Source: a virus
Lineage: Duplodnaviria; Caudoviricetes
Reading direction: 5' to 3' (one strand)
DNA length: 31,303 bases
Virus record (IMG/VR): IMGVR_UViG_3300010206_000003
Span: 1 to 31,303 of that record
The notes beneath the pieces were generated by a model. It had not been told where the DNA came from. It saw only the letters and a program-made list of their open reading frames with translations, and did no database searches. Position 1 is the first letter of the stretch. The number at the start of each line of letters is the position of its first letter. This document shows positions 304 to 7,876 of this stretch, one piece after another. The position numbers were made by a program, and so were the translations under genes.

Positions 304-441
304 ATGGCCAAGAAGAATACGGAAGTGACGAGCGCGAAAGCGGCTTCTGCCGCCGGGAAGGTTCTGAGCAATCCGAAGTCGAGCCCGGCTGCTAAAACTG
401 CCGCGGCGTCGGCGCTCTCGCAGCGCCCTAACAAGAAGTAA
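304..441 (+). CDS. Small basic Ala/Lys/Ser-rich protein, 45 aa (host side)
   Basis: Strong SD AAAGGAGG upstream; MAKKNTEVTSAKAASAAGKVLSNPKSSPAAKTAAASALSQRPNKK*; too short for the ORF track. Confidence 0.75.
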   Translation: MAKKNTEVTSAKAASAAGKVLSNPKSSPAAKTAAASALSQRPNKK

Positions 442-1192: not shown

Positions 1193-1654
1193 TTAGGTGT
1201 CGAGCAAAGTCACTGCGGTGCCGGCGGCCACGAGGAAGAGCATGGACTTTCCGCCGCCGCTCACTTCGCTGTAGTTCAAGGATGTCCCAACGACAGCGTT
1301 TGCGCCGAGAGCGTATGCTTCTTGGCGCAGCTCCTGCAGTGCCTGATCCTTCGCCCTGCGCAGATTGTCTTGCAGGGTCTTGCTTCGCCCCCCGAAAACA
1401 TCCCGGAACGAAGTTGCGATATCCTCGAACAGGTTCATTCCGATCACGACCTCGGCGGTCACGATGCCGAAGCGTTGCACGATAGCCAAGCCGGGGGCAG
1501 TTTCGGTCGTCAGGATGATTGCTGCAAGTTGATCATGCCCCGCTGCGCGCAGCGGTGAAGCCCTTCGAGCTTGCGGAAGCTTCGCGCATTCGAAGCAAAG
1601 CCCAGTGGCGGGATCGACGTATGTATTCGCCTTGCATCGTAAACACTGGGCCAT
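1193..1654 (-). CDS. YbjQ/UPF0145-family protein with N-terminal Cys4 (zinc-ribbon-like) segment, 153 aa
   Basis: GIVTAEVVIGMNLFEDIATSFRDVFGGRS and AYALGANAVVG...AAGTAV are YbjQ signatures; N-terminal CLRC...CFEC; SD AGGAAGGG upstream of ATG 1654. Confidence 0.85.
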   Translation of the reverse strand: MAQCLRCKANTYVDPATGLCFECAKLPQARRASPLRAAGHDQLAAIILTTETAPGLAIVQRFGIVTAEVVIGMNLFEDIATSFRDVFGGRSKTLQDNLRRAKDQALQELRQEAYALGANAVVGTSLNYSEVSGGGKSMLFLVAAGTAVTLLDT

Positions 1655-1688
1655 GCCATGATCCCTTCCTGTTAAGTCTCCGGCACCG

Positions 1689-1785
1689 CTATCCACAAGA
1701 GTCGCCAGACCATACGACCTGACCGATAATCTGCAACCTGTTAGCGTGGTCGCAGGGACGAAACTCGGTGCGGAGAAGTGCGTCA
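1689..1785 (-). pseudogene. Relic 3' end of a CI/S24 repressor gene
   Basis: Reads DALLRTEFRPCDHANRLQIIGQVVWSGDSCG*, versus DAPSYQSEFRRSDEANRVSIIGQVVWSGHTW* at the end of the intact repressor. Confidence 0.8.
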
Positions 1786-1850
1786 AACAGCGGGAAATGC
1801 CAGATATCCATGCTATTAGTAGTCAATGATCTGACATCATGGGGGGCCAA

Positions 1851-2483
1851 ATGCCCGATATCTCTGCTCTTCTTCAGCTTCCCTTCGAGGTTATCTGGAT
1901 GCTTGGTATCGGCTACCTCGGTTACAAGCTGACATTTGTTGGCCGCGATGCGCATCATCAGGTTCTTGACCGCATCTTTCTGATCTTTGTTATCGGATCG
2001 GTCGCCCGTTGGGCTGCGGCGCTGGTGACCCGCTGGTGGGATGTCAGCGACATGCTGGAAGCGGGGCTCGCATTGCTGGCTGGTATCGCTGGTGCGCTGA
2101 TGTGGCGGCGCTGGGGTGGCAACTGGTTCTACGAGGCAATGTACCGGACGAATTTCATTCGTGACGACGGGCAACCCGACGTCTGGCGCAGCATGCTGGC
2201 GCGCAGCGGACTGAATGGCCCCCGGCGACTGGTGGTGCGATTGAAGAACGGTACGGAACTCATGTGCAACGAACTGGCAGATTTCAACGATGCGCCGCTT
2301 GGCCCATGCCTGTTTGGTCAGGACGGGTCGATTGCGATATATGTGACCGACGTGCGCAAACCAGGTGCAGAAGACTGGACCGAGATCGATCCGGTACCGC
2401 CGGAAGCGCCGCAATGGGGTTACGAGATGTCATTCATCCCGGCTTCGGAAATCGCGCGCGTGGATATCACCCGGCAGGCCTAG
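1851..2483 (+). CDS. Membrane protein with about 3 N-terminal TM segments and a soluble C-terminal beta-rich domain (DUF6338-like), 210 aa
   Basis: Hydrophobic stretches in residues ~5-85; C-terminal LVVRLKNG...FIPASEIARVDI pattern recalls DUF6338 proteins (from memory, unverified); alternative start 1839. Confidence 0.75.
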   Translation: MPDISALLQLPFEVIWMLGIGYLGYKLTFVGRDAHHQVLDRIFLIFVIGSVARWAAALVTRWWDVSDMLEAGLALLAGIAGALMWRRWGGNWFYEAMYRTNFIRDDGQPDVWRSMLARSGLNGPRRLVVRLKNGTELMCNELADFNDAPLGPCLFGQDGSIAIYVTDVRKPGAEDWTEIDPVPPEAPQWGYEMSFIPASEIARVDITRQA

Positions 2484-2620
2484 CCCTTTGGTTTCGGCTT
2501 TGGTGCCGGTGCGGCGCTTTTTGTCAGCTTTCCAGGCTGGTGAGACCCTTGTACGCCCGCAATGCCAGACTTGCCTGCAGGGCTCTTCTGATCAGAGGAC
2601 TTCTTCCCATCCTTGCCCAT
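2480..2620 (-). CDS. KPKPKG micro-protein P3, 46 aa
   Basis: MGKDGKKSSDQKSPAGKSGIAGVQGSHQPGKLTKSAAPAPKPKPKG*; preceded by GAAAGGCTGATC; stop overlaps the membrane gene stop in CTAG. Confidence 0.75.
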   Translation of the reverse strand: MGKDGKKSSDQKSPAGKSGIAGVQGSHQPGKLTKSAAPAPKPKPKG

Positions 2621-2622
2621 GA

Positions 2623-2778
2623 TCAGCCTTTCGGTTTTGGCTTTGCTGGCGGTGCCGCCTCAAACTTCAGCGGCGCTCGCGGCTGCTCCGAAAACAGTGC
2701 CGTGAGGGTTTGTTCTCGCGGTTGCGTCGGTTTTGCGGGCGAAGCGGCCGTACTCGGTTTCTTGCGATCGTCTGCCAT
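2623..2778 (-). CDS. KPKPKG micro-protein P2, 51 aa
   Basis: MADDRKKPSTAASPAKPTQPREQTLTALFSEQPRAPLKFEAAPPAKPKPKG*; preceded by GAAAGGGTGATC. Confidence 0.75.
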   Translation of the reverse strand: MADDRKKPSTAASPAKPTQPREQTLTALFSEQPRAPLKFEAAPPAKPKPKG

Positions 2779-2780
2779 GA

Positions 2781-2867
2781 TCACCCTTTCGGTTTCGGTT
2801 TCGTGGGTGGCGGAACAGCTTTCGTTCCCTTGGGCTGCTGGCTCTTGATCGAAATCTCTTTTGCCAT
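2781..2867 (-). CDS. KPKPKG micro-protein P1, 28 aa
   Basis: MAKEISIKSQQPKGTKAVPPPTKPKPKG*; SD GAAAGGA overlaps the repressor stop codon. Confidence 0.72.
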   Translation of the reverse strand: MAKEISIKSQQPKGTKAVPPPTKPKPKG

Positions 2868-2878
2868 CCTGCGTCCTT

Positions 2879-3544
2879 TCACCAAGTGTGACCCGACCAG
2901 ACAACCTGACCGATGATGCTCACCCTGTTGGCTTCGTCTGATCTGCGGAATTCAGATTGGTATGAGGGCGCGTCTGAGCGCAGAATAAGGCCCTCCGGCA
3001 ACAGATCGACGCGCTTCACCCTGGTCGAGCCGTCGGTGTCGGTCAGGGCGTAGACGTGGCCGTTGCGCACCTTGTTGCGGCGGCGGTCGATCAGGGCCAG
3101 ATCGCCATCGTGCAACCCGGGCGTCATGCTGTCGCCCGAGACCTGGACGAGCACAGCTTGCGTTGGATCGACGCCCATGCGGTCCAGCCAGTCGCGGCGG
3201 AAGGCCAGTTTCTCGATCACATGCACGTCTCCGTTTTCGGCCCCCGGCCCCGCCGACACCCGGGCATCGAGGCGCGGAATCGGGCTGAAATCTTCGTTCC
3301 CCAGAACAACCGTCTCGACTGGTCCAGTCGATCGAGGCGGGCCGATGTAGAACTCCAGCCCCAGCGCTTCACAGATTTGCTGCGCGCGGTTTATTCCAGT
3401 GCCCGTCTTCTTTGTCCCGCGCAGTACAGATCTTAGCGCATCGGGGGCCAGACCGTAGTCACGCTCAGCAGCAAACGTGTTCGTTGAGAGCGCCGACAAG
3501 CGCTCTCTGATCAGCTCTGCAAGCATGGTCTCCGCATCGATCAT
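2879..3544 (-). CDS. Prophage repressor, CI/LexA-like (HTH plus S24 peptidase)
   Basis: N-terminal HTH-like region, Ala-Gly cleavage site (VSAGPG), catalytic Ser (GDSM) and Lys (VKRV); divergent from a Cro-like gene. Start is 3544 or 3526. Confidence 0.9.
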   Translation of the reverse strand: MIDAETMLAELIRERLSALSTNTFAAERDYGLAPDALRSVLRGTKKTGTGINRAQQICEALGLEFYIGPPRSTGPVETVVLGNEDFSPIPRLDARVSAGPGAENGDVHVIEKLAFRRDWLDRMGVDPTQAVLVQVSGDSMTPGLHDGDLALIDRRRNKVRNGHVYALTDTDGSTRVKRVDLLPEGLILRSDAPSYQSEFRRSDEANRVSIIGQVVWSGHTW

Positions 3545-4036: not shown

Positions 4037-4263
4037 TGACCGATTTCCCCACTGATTACCGCGCCCCCGAAGCCACCATCACTGTCGGGCGCGGCAGGCG
4101 CCGGAGCATCCTCCCCACCTTGCTCCGGCGCCTCAAGGCCTTTTTCGACTGGGTGGACGGCTGCTGGGCTGTCGATGTTCTAGGCGCAGCCACCATCCTG
4201 ATTTTCATGCTTCTGACCCCTGTTTTTCTTCCCCTGATCTTCGAGGTGTTCCATGCAAACTGA
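4036..4263 (+). CDS. Small membrane protein, 75 aa
   Basis: TGATG coupling; MTDFPTDY... with C-terminal TM segment VLGAATILIFMLLTPVFLPLIF. Confidence 0.65.
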   Translation: MTDFPTDYRAPEATITVGRGRRRSILPTLLRRLKAFFDWVDGCWAVDVLGAATILIFMLLTPVFLPLIFEVFHAN

Positions 4264-4546
4264 CGTTCTCAACGACGAAACCCACCCCGCCGCCATGCTC
4301 CCGGCGGCGCGCATGGCCGAAATCCGGCGTCTGACCGAGGCCGCGAACGAAGCGGCGGTGAGTGCCGGTCGCATCCATGCCGACGCGGACCAGATGCGGC
4401 CTGATGATCCCGCGATGCGGAACGCGCTCAACGCGGTTGATGCTCTGTGGACCGTGCATGATCAGTTGGTGACCGAGCTGCTGGAGTGCCTGCATCAGGC
4501 CGAGGCGGCTGGCGATCTGGCGGTCTGCGAAGCGGCGCTGGGGTAA
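4253..4546 (+). CDS. Hypothetical helical protein, 97 aa
   Basis: SD GAGGTG upstream; overlaps both neighbours in the operon. Confidence 0.7.
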   Translation: MQTDVLNDETHPAAMLPAARMAEIRRLTEAANEAAVSAGRIHADADQMRPDDPAMRNALNAVDALWTVHDQLVTELLECLHQAEAAGDLAVCEAALG

Positions 4547-4881: not shown

Positions 4882-5759
4882 TGGCCCGTTTGACGCAGAT
4901 CGACAGCGTGCCGGTGGCGGAGGTGATCGTGCGCGACCGCCTGCGTCCGGTGACCGAGGCGGGGGTGCAGAGCCTTCTTGCCTCGATCGCCGAGACGGGG
5001 GTGATGAAGGACGCGATCCATGTGCGCAAGAAGAAGGACGGCAGCCTGCACCTGATTGCGGGTGGGCACCGGCTGGAGGCGGCGCGGCGGCTCGACTGGA
5101 AGATGATCGAGGCCAAGGTCTGGACCGACGTCACCGACGACTGGGCGCGGTTGATGGAGATCGACGACAACCTTGCGGGCGCGGAGATGAACGCGCTCGA
5201 CACAGCGGTGTTTTTGGCCACCCGCAAGGAGGTTTACGAGCGCCTGCATCCGGAGACGAAATGGGGCGTGGCCGGAGGCCTAGCGCGCCAAGGGGCAGCA
5301 ACGGAACCGAGTTCCGTTGCTAGTTTTGCCGCTTCCACCGCCGAGAAGTTCGGCCTGACGGATCGACAAATCCGCAAGATCGTTGCCGCCGGGACCAAGC
5401 TCGGCCCCGACGAGGTGGCGCGGCTGCGCGCCGCGCCGCGGGCGGTGACGCTGAAGGATCTGACCGAGATTGCGAAGATCGGCCAGGCGCCGGAGCGCTA
5501 TGACGTGGTGGCTCGACTGGCCGAAGGCCGCGCCAAATCCGCCGCGGATGCGCGCAAGGCGCTGCGTCTTGAACGGGATGGTGAAGCCCCCGTTCAAGAT
5601 CCGTCTGATCAGCAGTTCAAGGCGCTGCAGGCGGCCTGGAACCGGGCCGGGGCGAAGGCGCGCGCCAAGTTCGTCGATGCCAACGGCGTCCGCCTGATCG
5701 AGATGGCGGGCCTGCAGCTCGGCATCGAACCGCCCGCGCGCCGGGAGGCCGCAGAATGA
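4881..5759 (+). CDS. ParB/Spo0J-like N-terminal domain protein with HTH, 292 aa
   Basis: LIAGGHRLEAA (GxxRxxA) and EIDDN motifs; HTH-like TAEKFGLTDRQIRKIV; SD GGAGG. Confidence 0.88.
   Translation: MARLTQIDSVPVAEVIVRDRLRPVTEAGVQSLLASIAETGVMKDAIHVRKKKDGSLHLIAGGHRLEAARRLDWKMIEAKVWTDVTDDWARLMEIDDNLAGAEMNALDTAVFLATRKEVYERLHPETKWGVAGGLARQGAATEPSSVASFAASTAEKFGLTDRQIRKIVAAGTKLGPDEVARLRAAPRAVTLKDLTEIAKIGQAPERYDVVARLAEGRAKSAADARKALRLERDGEAPVQDPSDQQFKALQAAWNRAGAKARAKFVDANGVRLIEMAGLQLGIEPPARREAAE
5297..5321. repeat. Perfect 11-bp inverted repeat inside the ParB-like gene
   Basis: AGCAACGGAAC-CGA-GTTCCGTTGCT. Confidence 0.85.
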
Positions 5760-7876
5760 AATCAGCTACCCCCGCACGCGAATGGTGGACGGCCGAGGCT
5801 TTGGCGGCGGCTGGACTTCCCGATGTGCCGACGACAAAGCGCAACGTAAATGCAATGGCGGCGCGTCTCGACTGGATGGCGCATCCGACCTATGCCCGCC
5901 GCCGCGCTGGCCGCGGGGGTGGCTGGGAATATCACTGGAAGCTGTTGCCGGTGCGGGCGCAGGCGGCGCTGCTGAAGGCCGCCAGTGCGCCCCATCACGC
6001 CCCGGCGCCGCAGCGGGCGCGGGGCGAGGTCTGGTCCTGGTATGATGGGCTGCCGGAGACGGTGAAAGCGCAGGCGGCGGCGCGGCTGGCGGTGATCCAG
6101 AAGGTCGAAGCGTTGGAAGCCCCGATGGGAAAGGCGCTGGCCGTCGATATGGTGGCGCAAGAGACCGATGTTTCTGCCCGCACGATCTGGAACTGGTTCG
6201 AGATGATCGAGGGCGTCGATCCGGCGGATCGGCTGGCGTATCTGGCTCCGCGCCATCGCGCCGCAGATGCGAAGCGCGAGCGGGCCGATTGCAGTCAAGA
6301 GTTTCTGGATTGGCTCCGGGCGGATTACCTCCGCCTCGAAAAGCCCAGCTTCAAGAGCTGCTACGACCGGGTGGTCGAGTTGTGCAGAGCGCGCGGGCTG
6401 ACGATGCTGACCGAGCGCACGGCCCGGCGCTGGATAGAGGCGAACGTGCCGCGTGTCTCGCTGGTTCTGGCGCGCGAAGGGGAGCGCGGGCTTGCGAAGT
6501 GCTTCCCGCCGCAGATCCGCGATCGCTCGACGCTGACGGCGCTGGAGGCGGTAAACGCCGACTGCCACAAGATCGACGTTTTCGTGCAATGGCCCGGAAT
6601 CGAGCAGCCGGTGCGGCCGCAGATTGCGGCCTTCCAGGATCTCTATTCGAACAAGATGCTGGCCTATCGGGTCGATCTGGACCCGAACAAGGTCGCTGTC
6701 ATGCAGGCCTGGGGGGAGCTGGTCGAGACCTATGGCATCCCGCGCCATTGCCTCTTCGACAACGGGATGGAATTCGCCAACAAGTGGCTGACGGGCGGCA
6801 CGCCGACGCGGTTTCGCTTCAAGGTTCGGCCCGATGACGGTCTGGGCGTGCTGCCGCAGATGGGCGTGCAGATCCACTGGGCGACGCCTGCCCACGGTCA
6901 GGCCAAGCCGATCGAGCGCGGGTTCCGAGATTTCGCGGACCGGGTTGCCAAGCATCCGGCATTCGCCGGGGCCTATGTCGGGAACAACCCGCTGGCCAAG
7001 CCGGAGAACTATGCGAGCCGCGCGATTCCGCTCGCTGATTTTCTGGCTGTCCTCGATCAGGAAGTGGCCAAGCACAACGCCCGGCCCGGCCGCCTGACCG
7101 CCAACGCCAAGGGTCGCAGCTTCGACGAAACCTTTGCGGAGAGCTACGCGACGGCGCCGATCCGGAAGGCGACACCGGAGCAGCACCGGCTGTGGCTGAT
7201 GGGTCAGGAGAAGCGGAAGCTGCACCGCACCCATGGTGTGCTGACGCTGTTCAAGAACGGCTATTGGGCCGACTGGATGAACGAATTTGCAGGTGAGAAT
7301 GTTCTTTCCAGGTTCAACCCGGAAGACCTGCACGAAGGGCTCTACATCTACTCGCTCGCAGGGGAATTTCTGGGCTTCGCCGAGTGCCGCGAGAAAACCG
7401 GCTTCTTCGACCTTGTTGGCGCGAAGCTGCACGCCAAGGCGGATCGCGCGCGCAAGCGGGCGGAGAAAGAGCTGCTCAAGGCACAGCTGCCGGTGTCTCT
7501 CGATACCTATGCGGCCGAGCTGGCCAGCCTGCCGCAACCGGAAACGCCGCTGATCGAGGCCAAGGTGGTCGAGATGATGCCGGTGCGGCACCGGACACCG
7601 GTGATCGAGCGCAGCCTGCCGGTTCCTGACGCCTCGATCGAGGAACGGCTGACGGTGTTCCACGCCGATTTCAGCCAAAAGCGTTTGCCTGCCAAGGGAG
7701 AGGAAGAGAGCGCCGCCGATCGGTTTTGGCGGGCGCTCGACATCGAGCGGCGGTCCGAGGCCGGAGAGCCGGTGACCGAGGAAGAAGCGGAGTTCTACGG
7801 GCGCATGCAGCGCCTGCCGGAATACCGGGCGCAGCGGCTTGCCTACAAGGTGAACGGCGCGGCGGCGATCGGTTGA
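5756..7876 (+). CDS. muA: Mu-type DDE transposase (MuA-like), 706 aa
   Basis: N-terminal Mu DNA-binding domain (WWTAEAL..GLPDVP...GRGGGWEY); catalytic D (NADCH), D (FDNG) and E (KPIERGF). Confidence 0.95.
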   Translation: MKSATPAREWWTAEALAAAGLPDVPTTKRNVNAMAARLDWMAHPTYARRRAGRGGGWEYHWKLLPVRAQAALLKAASAPHHAPAPQRARGEVWSWYDGLPETVKAQAAARLAVIQKVEALEAPMGKALAVDMVAQETDVSARTIWNWFEMIEGVDPADRLAYLAPRHRAADAKRERADCSQEFLDWLRADYLRLEKPSFKSCYDRVVELCRARGLTMLTERTARRWIEANVPRVSLVLAREGERGLAKCFPPQIRDRSTLTALEAVNADCHKIDVFVQWPGIEQPVRPQIAAFQDLYSNKMLAYRVDLDPNKVAVMQAWGELVETYGIPRHCLFDNGMEFANKWLTGGTPTRFRFKVRPDDGLGVLPQMGVQIHWATPAHGQAKPIERGFRDFADRVAKHPAFAGAYVGNNPLAKPENYASRAIPLADFLAVLDQEVAKHNARPGRLTANAKGRSFDETFAESYATAPIRKATPEQHRLWLMGQEKRKLHRTHGVLTLFKNGYWADWMNEFAGENVLSRFNPEDLHEGLYIYSLAGEFLGFAECREKTGFFDLVGAKLHAKADRARKRAEKELLKAQLPVSLDTYAAELASLPQPETPLIEAKVVEMMPVRHRTPVIERSLPVPDASIEERLTVFHADFSQKRLPAKGEEESAADRFWRALDIERRSEAGEPVTEEEAEFYGRMQRLPEYRAQRLAYKVNGAAAIG

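Follow-up and report, generated by a model that had tools for sequence, protein, structure and literature searches.

The question raised by the present locus is whether three very short, proline- and lysine-rich reading frames behind a phage repressor form a functional unit with the membrane protein gene that faces them, and whether such a unit has been described before. The locus belongs to the virus record IMGVR_UViG_3300010206_000003, and the window, i.e., the whole stretch of DNA analysed, is the entire record (31,303 nt, linear, 79% complete). The initial annotation had taken the arrangement for a candidate new system, in which peptides co-expressed with the repressor act on the membrane protein as variant ligands or antidotes. 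The record is that of a Mu-like transposable prophage, with a Mu transposase gene (5756-7876), a TniB/AAA ATPase gene behind it, and lysis, terminase, portal, head and tail genes further along; homologues suggest Rhodobacterales as the order of the host. The cassette is situated left of the S24-type repressor gene, which is divergent from the early operon with the transposase, in an accessory stretch near the left prophage end (Table 1).

Table 1. Features of the repressor-proximal cassette and its surroundings in the window.
Feature	Position	Strand	Evidence
YbjQ-family gene, phrog_15412	1193-1654	-	Pfam YbjQ_1 E 1.2e-28; PHROG E 1.7e-62
Repressor 3'-end remnant, far side of cassette	1689-1790	-	direct repeat and C-terminus match
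Membrane protein, 210 aa, phrog_12870	1851-2483	+	PHROG E 2.8e-36
P3, 46 aa, Pro/Lys-rich, SHQP-x11-KPKPKG	2480-2620	-	sequence
P2, 51 aa, Pro/Lys-rich, SEQP-x12-KPKPKG	2623-2778	-	sequence; ATG at 2778
P1, 28 aa, Pro/Lys-rich, SQQP-x10-KPKPKG	2781-2867	-	sequence; SD-like GAAAGGA upstream
Repressor, S24 autopeptidase domain	2879-3544	-	Pfam Peptidase_S24 E 1.1e-18; phrog_4 transcriptional repressor E 3e-38

The coordinates and motifs given for the three tandem minus-strand frames were all correct: a degenerate pattern for KPKPKG followed by a stop codon matched three times in the window, exactly at P1, P2 and P3, and in none of 100 shuffles. The genes are closely packed, with 11 nt between the repressor stop (2879) and the start of P1 and gaps of 2 nt between P1 and P2 and between P2 and P3, and repressor and P1-P3 are likely co-transcribed. 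As had been noticed initially, the stop codons of P3 and of the membrane gene overlap in CTAG (2480-2483), and P2 enters the mechanical ORF list only with a longer upstream start, as a 93-aa ORF from TTG at 2904. The N-terminal parts had been called unrelated, which does not fully hold for P2 and P3, as both share M-x-x-D-x-K-K-x-S and a 52-nt stretch over upstream tail and start is 75% identical. Differing synonymous codons in the KPKPKG tails had further been read as a mark of selection on the peptide. The codons do differ between P1, P2 and P3, but in many arrays those for K-G or K-R and stop double as an SD-like purine run ahead of the next ATG, as the tail codons of P1 do for the start of P2, so that tail codon choice alone is weaker evidence of peptide selection. 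None of the three peptides has a signal peptide.

A 63-nt direct repeat (1689-1751 vs 2876-2938, 73% identity) duplicates the repressor 3' end, and the remnant shares 16 of 23 residues with the repressor C-terminus (E 5e-10). The YbjQ-family protein beyond it has a four-cysteine stretch at its N-terminus; a YbjQ-like gene accompanies the module in one of 31 other loci scanned (L047), where it directly follows the repressor; it is a variable neighbour and no fixed component of the module. Remnant and gene order in L047 together suggest that the cassette was likely inserted or exchanged at the repressor 3' end, between repressor and YbjQ-like gene, the remnant being the scar. The available text of PMC4378225 deals with the accessory regions of Mu-like phages in general and has nothing on a microprotein/membrane module. 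A promoter and terminator scan of the window gave counts equal to those of shuffles (2 vs 1.3 and 3 vs 2.7). Further to the left, an 11-nt motif occurs three times, at 1066, 1100 (inverted) and 1171, with two partial copies, all within 1066-1186; they probably serve as binding sites for the transposase at the Mu left end, and, if so, positions 1-1000 would be host or flanking DNA. This part holds an open frame (1-89) whose CxxC...CxxC end we liken to the C-terminus of class II ribonucleotide reductases, then a GC-rich hairpin (103-131), a 45-aa Ala/Lys/Ser-rich ORF (304-441, plus strand) that matches phrog_5079, a small basic protein (E 2e-11), and an 81-aa ORF (495-740) which matches no family.

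Whether membrane gene and peptides belong together was judged from 55 related loci (3 viral, 31 from genomes, 21 from metagenomes), which with the window's own make 56, including about ten near-copies. A strict filter, written after the peptides had been seen, found at least one convergent short motif-bearing ORF in 45 of the 56 loci vs 8 of 617 control windows of equal length drawn from the same loci. Eight loci missed by the filter (L003, L006, L008, L013, L017, L029, L033, L050) have a clear peptide by eye, and reading by eye all loci with downstream DNA, i.e., leaving out L028, where it is missing, gave peptides in 53 of 55. L021 offers only an uncertain longer candidate, and no adjacent peptide was found in L023, where the membrane gene nevertheless seems unbroken. 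Of 401 genomes sampled evenly across the order, 14 matched the membrane family, and peptides were present in 12 of 13 member genomes, a count which omits one weak non-member match and in which several members repeat loci counted before; L090 is ambiguous. Co-occurrence of peptides with membrane homologues was thus borne out, with one to five copies per locus, also among close relatives, and wherever a peptide is present, in the window or in a relative, it faces the membrane gene. A 16.6-kb plasmid (CP081163.1) carries the module with five peptides, none of which is in its gene table. Membrane gene and peptides are a conserved two-part mobile cassette. Fused peptide-membrane forms were absent among 8000 candidates scored, which is weak evidence, and 13 longer homologues lack an in-frame fused peptide. 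A scan of viral contigs for orphan peptides, of too low power to tell for or against orphan arrays, yielded at least 119 loci, mostly chance ends of unrelated ORFs, with one locus that has the membrane gene and one short locus with an array and too little flank; L105, L133 and L167 were rejected as orphan arrays, their motifs being the ends of longer genes.

Common to the peptides is the element hydrophobic-x-hydrophobic-x-x-S/N-x-Q/R-P, followed by a Pro/Lys tail, and in 64 of 96 occurrences the motif lies 17-21 residues from the C-terminus. In one clade the array gives way to a single peptide, rich in Gly/Ser, in which S-V-Q-P (S-x-Q-P type) is repeated several times; the motif has hence been multiplied either across genes or within one. 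This peptide type corresponds to one clade of the membrane-protein tree (support 100/98), and peptide type tracks that tree overall, which shows co-inheritance only, since kin share the labels of peptide types. For five paralogue slots, dN/dS was 0.23, 0.15, 0.08, 0.04 and 0.05 (n = 10, 10, 6, 8 and 9), and for the membrane gene 0.07 (7 loci), in a sample of ten loci of the four-to-five-peptide clade with segments anchored on the motif, non-independent pairs and a first slot lying partly antisense to the end of the membrane ORF. These ratios indicate that the peptides in relatives are under purifying selection, as the initial annotation had supposed on other grounds, and each slot is conserved across genera. 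Its idea that extra copies cover related phages finds no support, the slots being conserved rather than diversifying, with the largest arrays on integrative elements and the plasmid, not behind repressors, and with a single repeat-bearing peptide in one clade. Considering the SD-like sites, purifying selection in relatives and the mass-spectrometric detection of kin in Pseudomonas stutzeri treated below, P1-P3 are very likely real, translated genes.

The membrane ORF has an extra in-frame ATG at 1839, while homologues begin at 1851. Three transmembrane helices are predicted (residues ~12-29, ~38-62 and ~67-90), and the AF2 model (pLDDT 86, pTM 0.58) shows a small beta domain after three long helices at the N-terminus. 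For this C-terminal domain (~106-210), Sm/LSm proteins rank first in both Foldseek (E 0.03) and VIA (best match Z 6.9, rmsd 1.9, 60 aligned), with scores that are middling (Z under 8) yet consistent over dozens of matches; no MscS chain was among the fold matches listed by either. Residues ~110-208 are thus predicted to form an Sm/LSm-like domain. It resembles Sm, LSm and Hfq proteins in predicted fold, but is anchored by three helices and net acidic (the domain of the window protein has a charge of -4, and the family averages 10.6 K/R vs 13.5 D/E), whereas the mean net charge of the peptides is +4.7. The residues of the Sm RNA-binding loop are presumably not kept. The positive-inside charge pattern suggests that the N-terminus lies outside and that both the first loop and the Sm-like domain face the cytoplasm. 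Near-invariant positions are Gly21, Tyr22, Tyr25, Gly31, Asp40, Trp85, Arg86, Gly134, Gly156, Gly159, Gly190 and Pro197. A catalytic Cys/His/Asp triad was considered and dropped, as position 139 varies between Cys and Ser and His36/Asp40 are not kept in DUF6338; Sm folds require a small residue at the place corresponding to position 139.

No meaningful match of the membrane protein was obtained in Pfam, NCBIfam or PADLOC. With regard to DUF6338 (PF19865), the window protein has no Pfam match at E<=1 and stays below the gathering cut-off, and 3 of 24 homologues match weakly (best E 0.0099). An hhalign comparison with the DUF6338 alignment, however, gave a probability of 84% (E 7.4e-6, 121 columns), Atlas feature scores of 0.95 and 0.92 led to clusters with 13% and 26% DUF6338, and an Atlas structure match (TM 0.71/0.75) led to a cluster with 88% DUF6338. 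By these profile and model comparisons the protein is a distant DUF6338 relative below the Pfam cut-off. A profile search of 1.84 billion proteins returned 510 representatives of its family (clustered at 50% identity, E<=0.001). Among 401 Pseudomonadota genomes sampled for DUF6338 itself, 16 were above the Pfam cut-off, and in 15 of the 16 best loci a short co-directional proline-rich partner with G/S-x-Q-P is present, the sixteenth having the same start and running into a longer frame. Canonical DUF6338 proteins and the present clade are thus alike in three transmembrane helices, a small beta domain and a short proline-rich partner; they differ in their conserved residues, in the orientation of the partner, co-directional there and convergent here, and in arrays which reach five copies here.

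A similar set of genes has been reported as ‘operon 9’ of P. stutzeri ATCC 14405, where the DUF6338 gene Pstu14405_RS12030 stands with SEP1, SEP5 and SEP2 (PMC10433244). According to the available text of that paper, the small genes lie behind the DUF6338 gene on the same strand and encode proline-rich proteins of 36, 47 and 41 aa, which were detected in cell extracts with 44-114 spectra and 98-100% coverage and are abundant in growing cells; no function is given there, and the authors regard them as not conserved beyond P. stutzeri. The likeness is close, a membrane protein of ~200 aa of DUF6338 type beside three proline-rich proteins of 36-47 aa with an N/S-x-R-P motif and a PPPPKK tail, in classes (NARP, NTRP, SQQP) that recur in the convergent clade. 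The window likewise has adjacent short proline-rich ORFs with the S/N/G-x-Q/R-P motif and a Pro/Lys tail; unlike operon 9, its small genes and those of its relatives are convergent instead of co-directional downstream members of one operon, and its membrane protein belongs to phrog_12870, below the DUF6338 cut-off. The initial remark that no described system with this layout was recognised therefore applies to the convergent form, and the pairing of microproteins with a DUF6338-type membrane protein is, as far as the published text goes, not new (PMC10433244). New are the convergent clade, its arrays of one to five individually conserved paralogues and the slot behind phage repressors.

Convergent 3' ends which touch or overlap throughout the clade, tail codons that double as SD-like sites and the predicted Sm/LSm fold could all be read at the level of RNA: either antisense read-through from the repressor promoter silences the membrane gene, with tails kept only as ribosome-binding sites, or an RNA-binding Sm protein is accompanied by incidental peptides. 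Both forms are very improbable, as dN/dS of 0.04-0.23 was found in the peptide frame, the last peptide keeps its tail with no ORF behind it, canonical DUF6338 peptides lie on the same strand as the membrane gene, the Sm-like domain carries net negative charge and the kin peptides of P. stutzeri are translated (PMC10433244).

A further thought is that the peptides are substrates or cargo, recognised by the membrane protein at S-x-Q-P and cut, modified or exported to give a signal or RiPP-like product, with the variable N-terminal part as the message. RiPP clusters have a conserved modifying enzyme, protease or exporter beside the precursor, whereas no shared modifying enzyme, protease or transporter was found among 147 neighbouring ORFs of 31 loci; the membrane protein itself might still act on the peptides. 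Moreover, the soluble domain matches Sm/LSm proteins and not an enzyme fold, His36/Asp40 are not kept in canonical DUF6338, the peptides lack signal peptides and those of P. stutzeri were covered to 98-100% in cell extracts (PMC10433244), which makes a cargo role unlikely.

As regards surroundings, 8 of 31 loci scanned have an S24 repressor gene on the strand of the peptides and upstream of them, so that the slot behind a phage repressor recurs; other neighbours are integrase, resolvase, BrnT, Mu or tail genes, or the module stands between housekeeping genes. PADLOC, applied to 106 hand-picked neighbouring ORFs from 24 sources, gave clear defence matches in 5 sources and none in 19, a raw count without background control: HEC-02 and type IIG restriction (L218), a UG17 reverse transcriptase with SLATT (L220), type IIG restriction and BstA (L097), type IV restriction (L098) and AbiZ (L026). 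Two of these five are probably the same kind of element. In L050, a candidate gene for a two-helix protein (1614-2261, minus strand), which we call SLATT-like by resemblance, stands behind the repressor between peptide and membrane gene; it has no PADLOC match. A near-identical four-peptide cassette lies by an integrase gene in L009, L010, L011, L012, L032 and L042, which represent five genera; a recent spread on one element is suggested. L097 (PP438431.1) is a GenBank record deposited as a Synechococcus phage, with a Rhodobacterales-type membrane gene at its very end, and its host or record type may be misassigned. L021, the locus with the uncertain peptide, encodes an Acb2/Tad1 hairpin protein, of an anti-defence sponge family, at 4152-4373 (plus strand; Pfam E 8e-18), ~500 nt from the membrane gene.

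In phage lambda, rexAB are exclusion genes behind the repressor that are expressed in the lysogen, and the slot in the window is typical of such genes. Peptides and membrane protein might accordingly cooperate, the peptides activating or assembling a non-toxic envelope complex that, e.g., blocks DNA entry of a superinfecting phage or a plasmid; the paralogue slots are each conserved in the manner of a distinct subunit, and an apparently intact membrane gene without adjacent peptide is tolerated (L023). However, convergent, separately promoted genes would be an odd arrangement for subunits of one complex, copy number varies from one to five among close relatives, and a phenotype is known for no member; a cooperative pair is judged to be about as unlikely as the cargo role.

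In two draft assemblies, the membrane gene is broken beside intact peptides, by a nonsense codon at the conserved Trp in L020, with five peptides, and by a frameshift in L067. This asymmetry is expected if the membrane protein is harmful. It speaks against the reverse polarity, in which the cationic proline-rich peptides would be antibacterial or ribosome-binding agents and the membrane protein their immunity protein or receptor. Toxin and immunity genes of pore-forming colicins are convergent, as is the layout here, and the composition recalls proline-rich antimicrobial peptides, a parallel also raised in PMC10433244. Yet the peptides are Lys-rich rather than Arg-rich, have neither an export signal nor a dedicated exporter nearby, and occur in quantity in growing cells of P. 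stutzeri (PMC10433244), so that this polarity is improbable, albeit less so than a role of RNA alone.

Prophage membrane-effector modules such as lambda RexAB and P22 SieB/Esc, and type II toxin-antitoxin pairs, resemble the cassette in combining a multi-helix membrane protein with a small partner in a small accessory module placed behind a repressor, but the partner here is an array of disordered microproteins, and the module has no sequence or profile match to them in PADLOC, NCBIfam or Pfam. In PADLOC the window protein is unmatched, with two stray matches at E 0.03 among 24 members of its family, and none of 12 canonical DUF6338 members matches a model. A mechanism for either the convergent or the co-directional module was not found in the literature searched, where defence-screen tables with DUF6338-like genes could be missed; among the matches listed, no relevant follow-up work on the P. 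stutzeri operon and nothing relevant on Sm-like anti-phage proteins, proline-rich antitoxins or Hfq-like pores appeared. The feature represents a new, convergent form of a module, DUF6338 with proline-rich microproteins, which has been described without a function, and it is not to be filed as DUF6338 proper or as a known defence or toxin-antitoxin system.

Our tentative preference, held with less than even confidence, is that the peptides restrain the membrane protein, as the antidote in a module of toxin-antidote or abortive-infection type. The cationic microproteins would be made from the repressor transcript during lysogeny, bind the predicted cytoplasmic Sm-like domain via S-x-Q-P and keep the membrane protein inactive; if their supply were lost, through host shut-off by an invading phage, element loss or induction, the membrane protein would be released. 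Sm-like domains usually form rings through edge-strand pairing, and if the subunits of such a ring are anchored in the membrane, they could damage it or act as its gate. A short stretch of beta-strand character precedes the motif (V/I-x-I/V-x-x-S-Q-Q-P) and might cap an edge strand or bind at several positions of an oligomer; this would account for the multiplication of the motif, as genes or as repeats in one peptide. That the whole amounts to a membrane-anchored Sm-like ring, a pore or clamp gated by disordered microprotein arrays with the brake supplied from the prophage repressor transcript, is doubtful, and less probable than restraint as such.

Restraint by peptides is favoured by the near-obligate pairing (45 of 56 loci by the strict filter, 53 of 55 by eye, 12 of 13 order-wide, 15 of 16 for DUF6338), by the charge complementarity of an acidic, predicted cytoplasmic domain with cationic peptides devoid of signals, by the multivalent motif, mostly 17-21 residues from the C-terminus, by the broken membrane genes beside intact peptides, by the mobile and often conflict-related context (S24 repressors, BrnT, PADLOC neighbours, the SLATT-like gene) and by the abundance of kin peptides in growing P. 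stutzeri (PMC10433244). Against it stand that toxicity, pore formation or a defence phenotype is known for no member and PADLOC has no match, that L023 has an apparently intact membrane gene and no adjacent peptide while L021 and L090 are ambiguous, that housekeeping genes flank many loci, no defence gene being near (19 of 24 sources gave no clear defence match), that the fold scores are middling and that five paralogues under purifying selection exceed the need of a simple antidote. No significant advantage in SD strength was seen for peptide genes over membrane genes (42 vs 65 starts, p=0.12), which leaves an antidote excess unsupported. Complex prediction of the membrane protein with P3 gave scores of 0.02 and 0.04 (mark 0.32; controls were not folded), which weigh neither for nor against binding, and the best score of an Atlas search with P3, 0.80, is a lead only.

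With 510 representatives, and matches in 14 of the 401 genomes sampled from the order, the membrane family is widespread; most of its microprotein partners escape annotation. The literature searched offered no mechanism for a conserved short motif that is repeated, within one peptide or across arrayed genes, beside a putative membrane-anchored Sm-like domain; as the convergent halves are separately promoted, toxicity, rescue and paralogue specificity are directly testable. If the antidote model is true, a new class of membrane effectors in prophage defence would be at hand, and if it is false, the module still defines a large unannotated family of microproteins. A peptide-gated Sm ring, if true, would provide a mechanism for the whole DUF6338-like superfamily and its microprotein partners and would represent a new class of mobile conflict systems.
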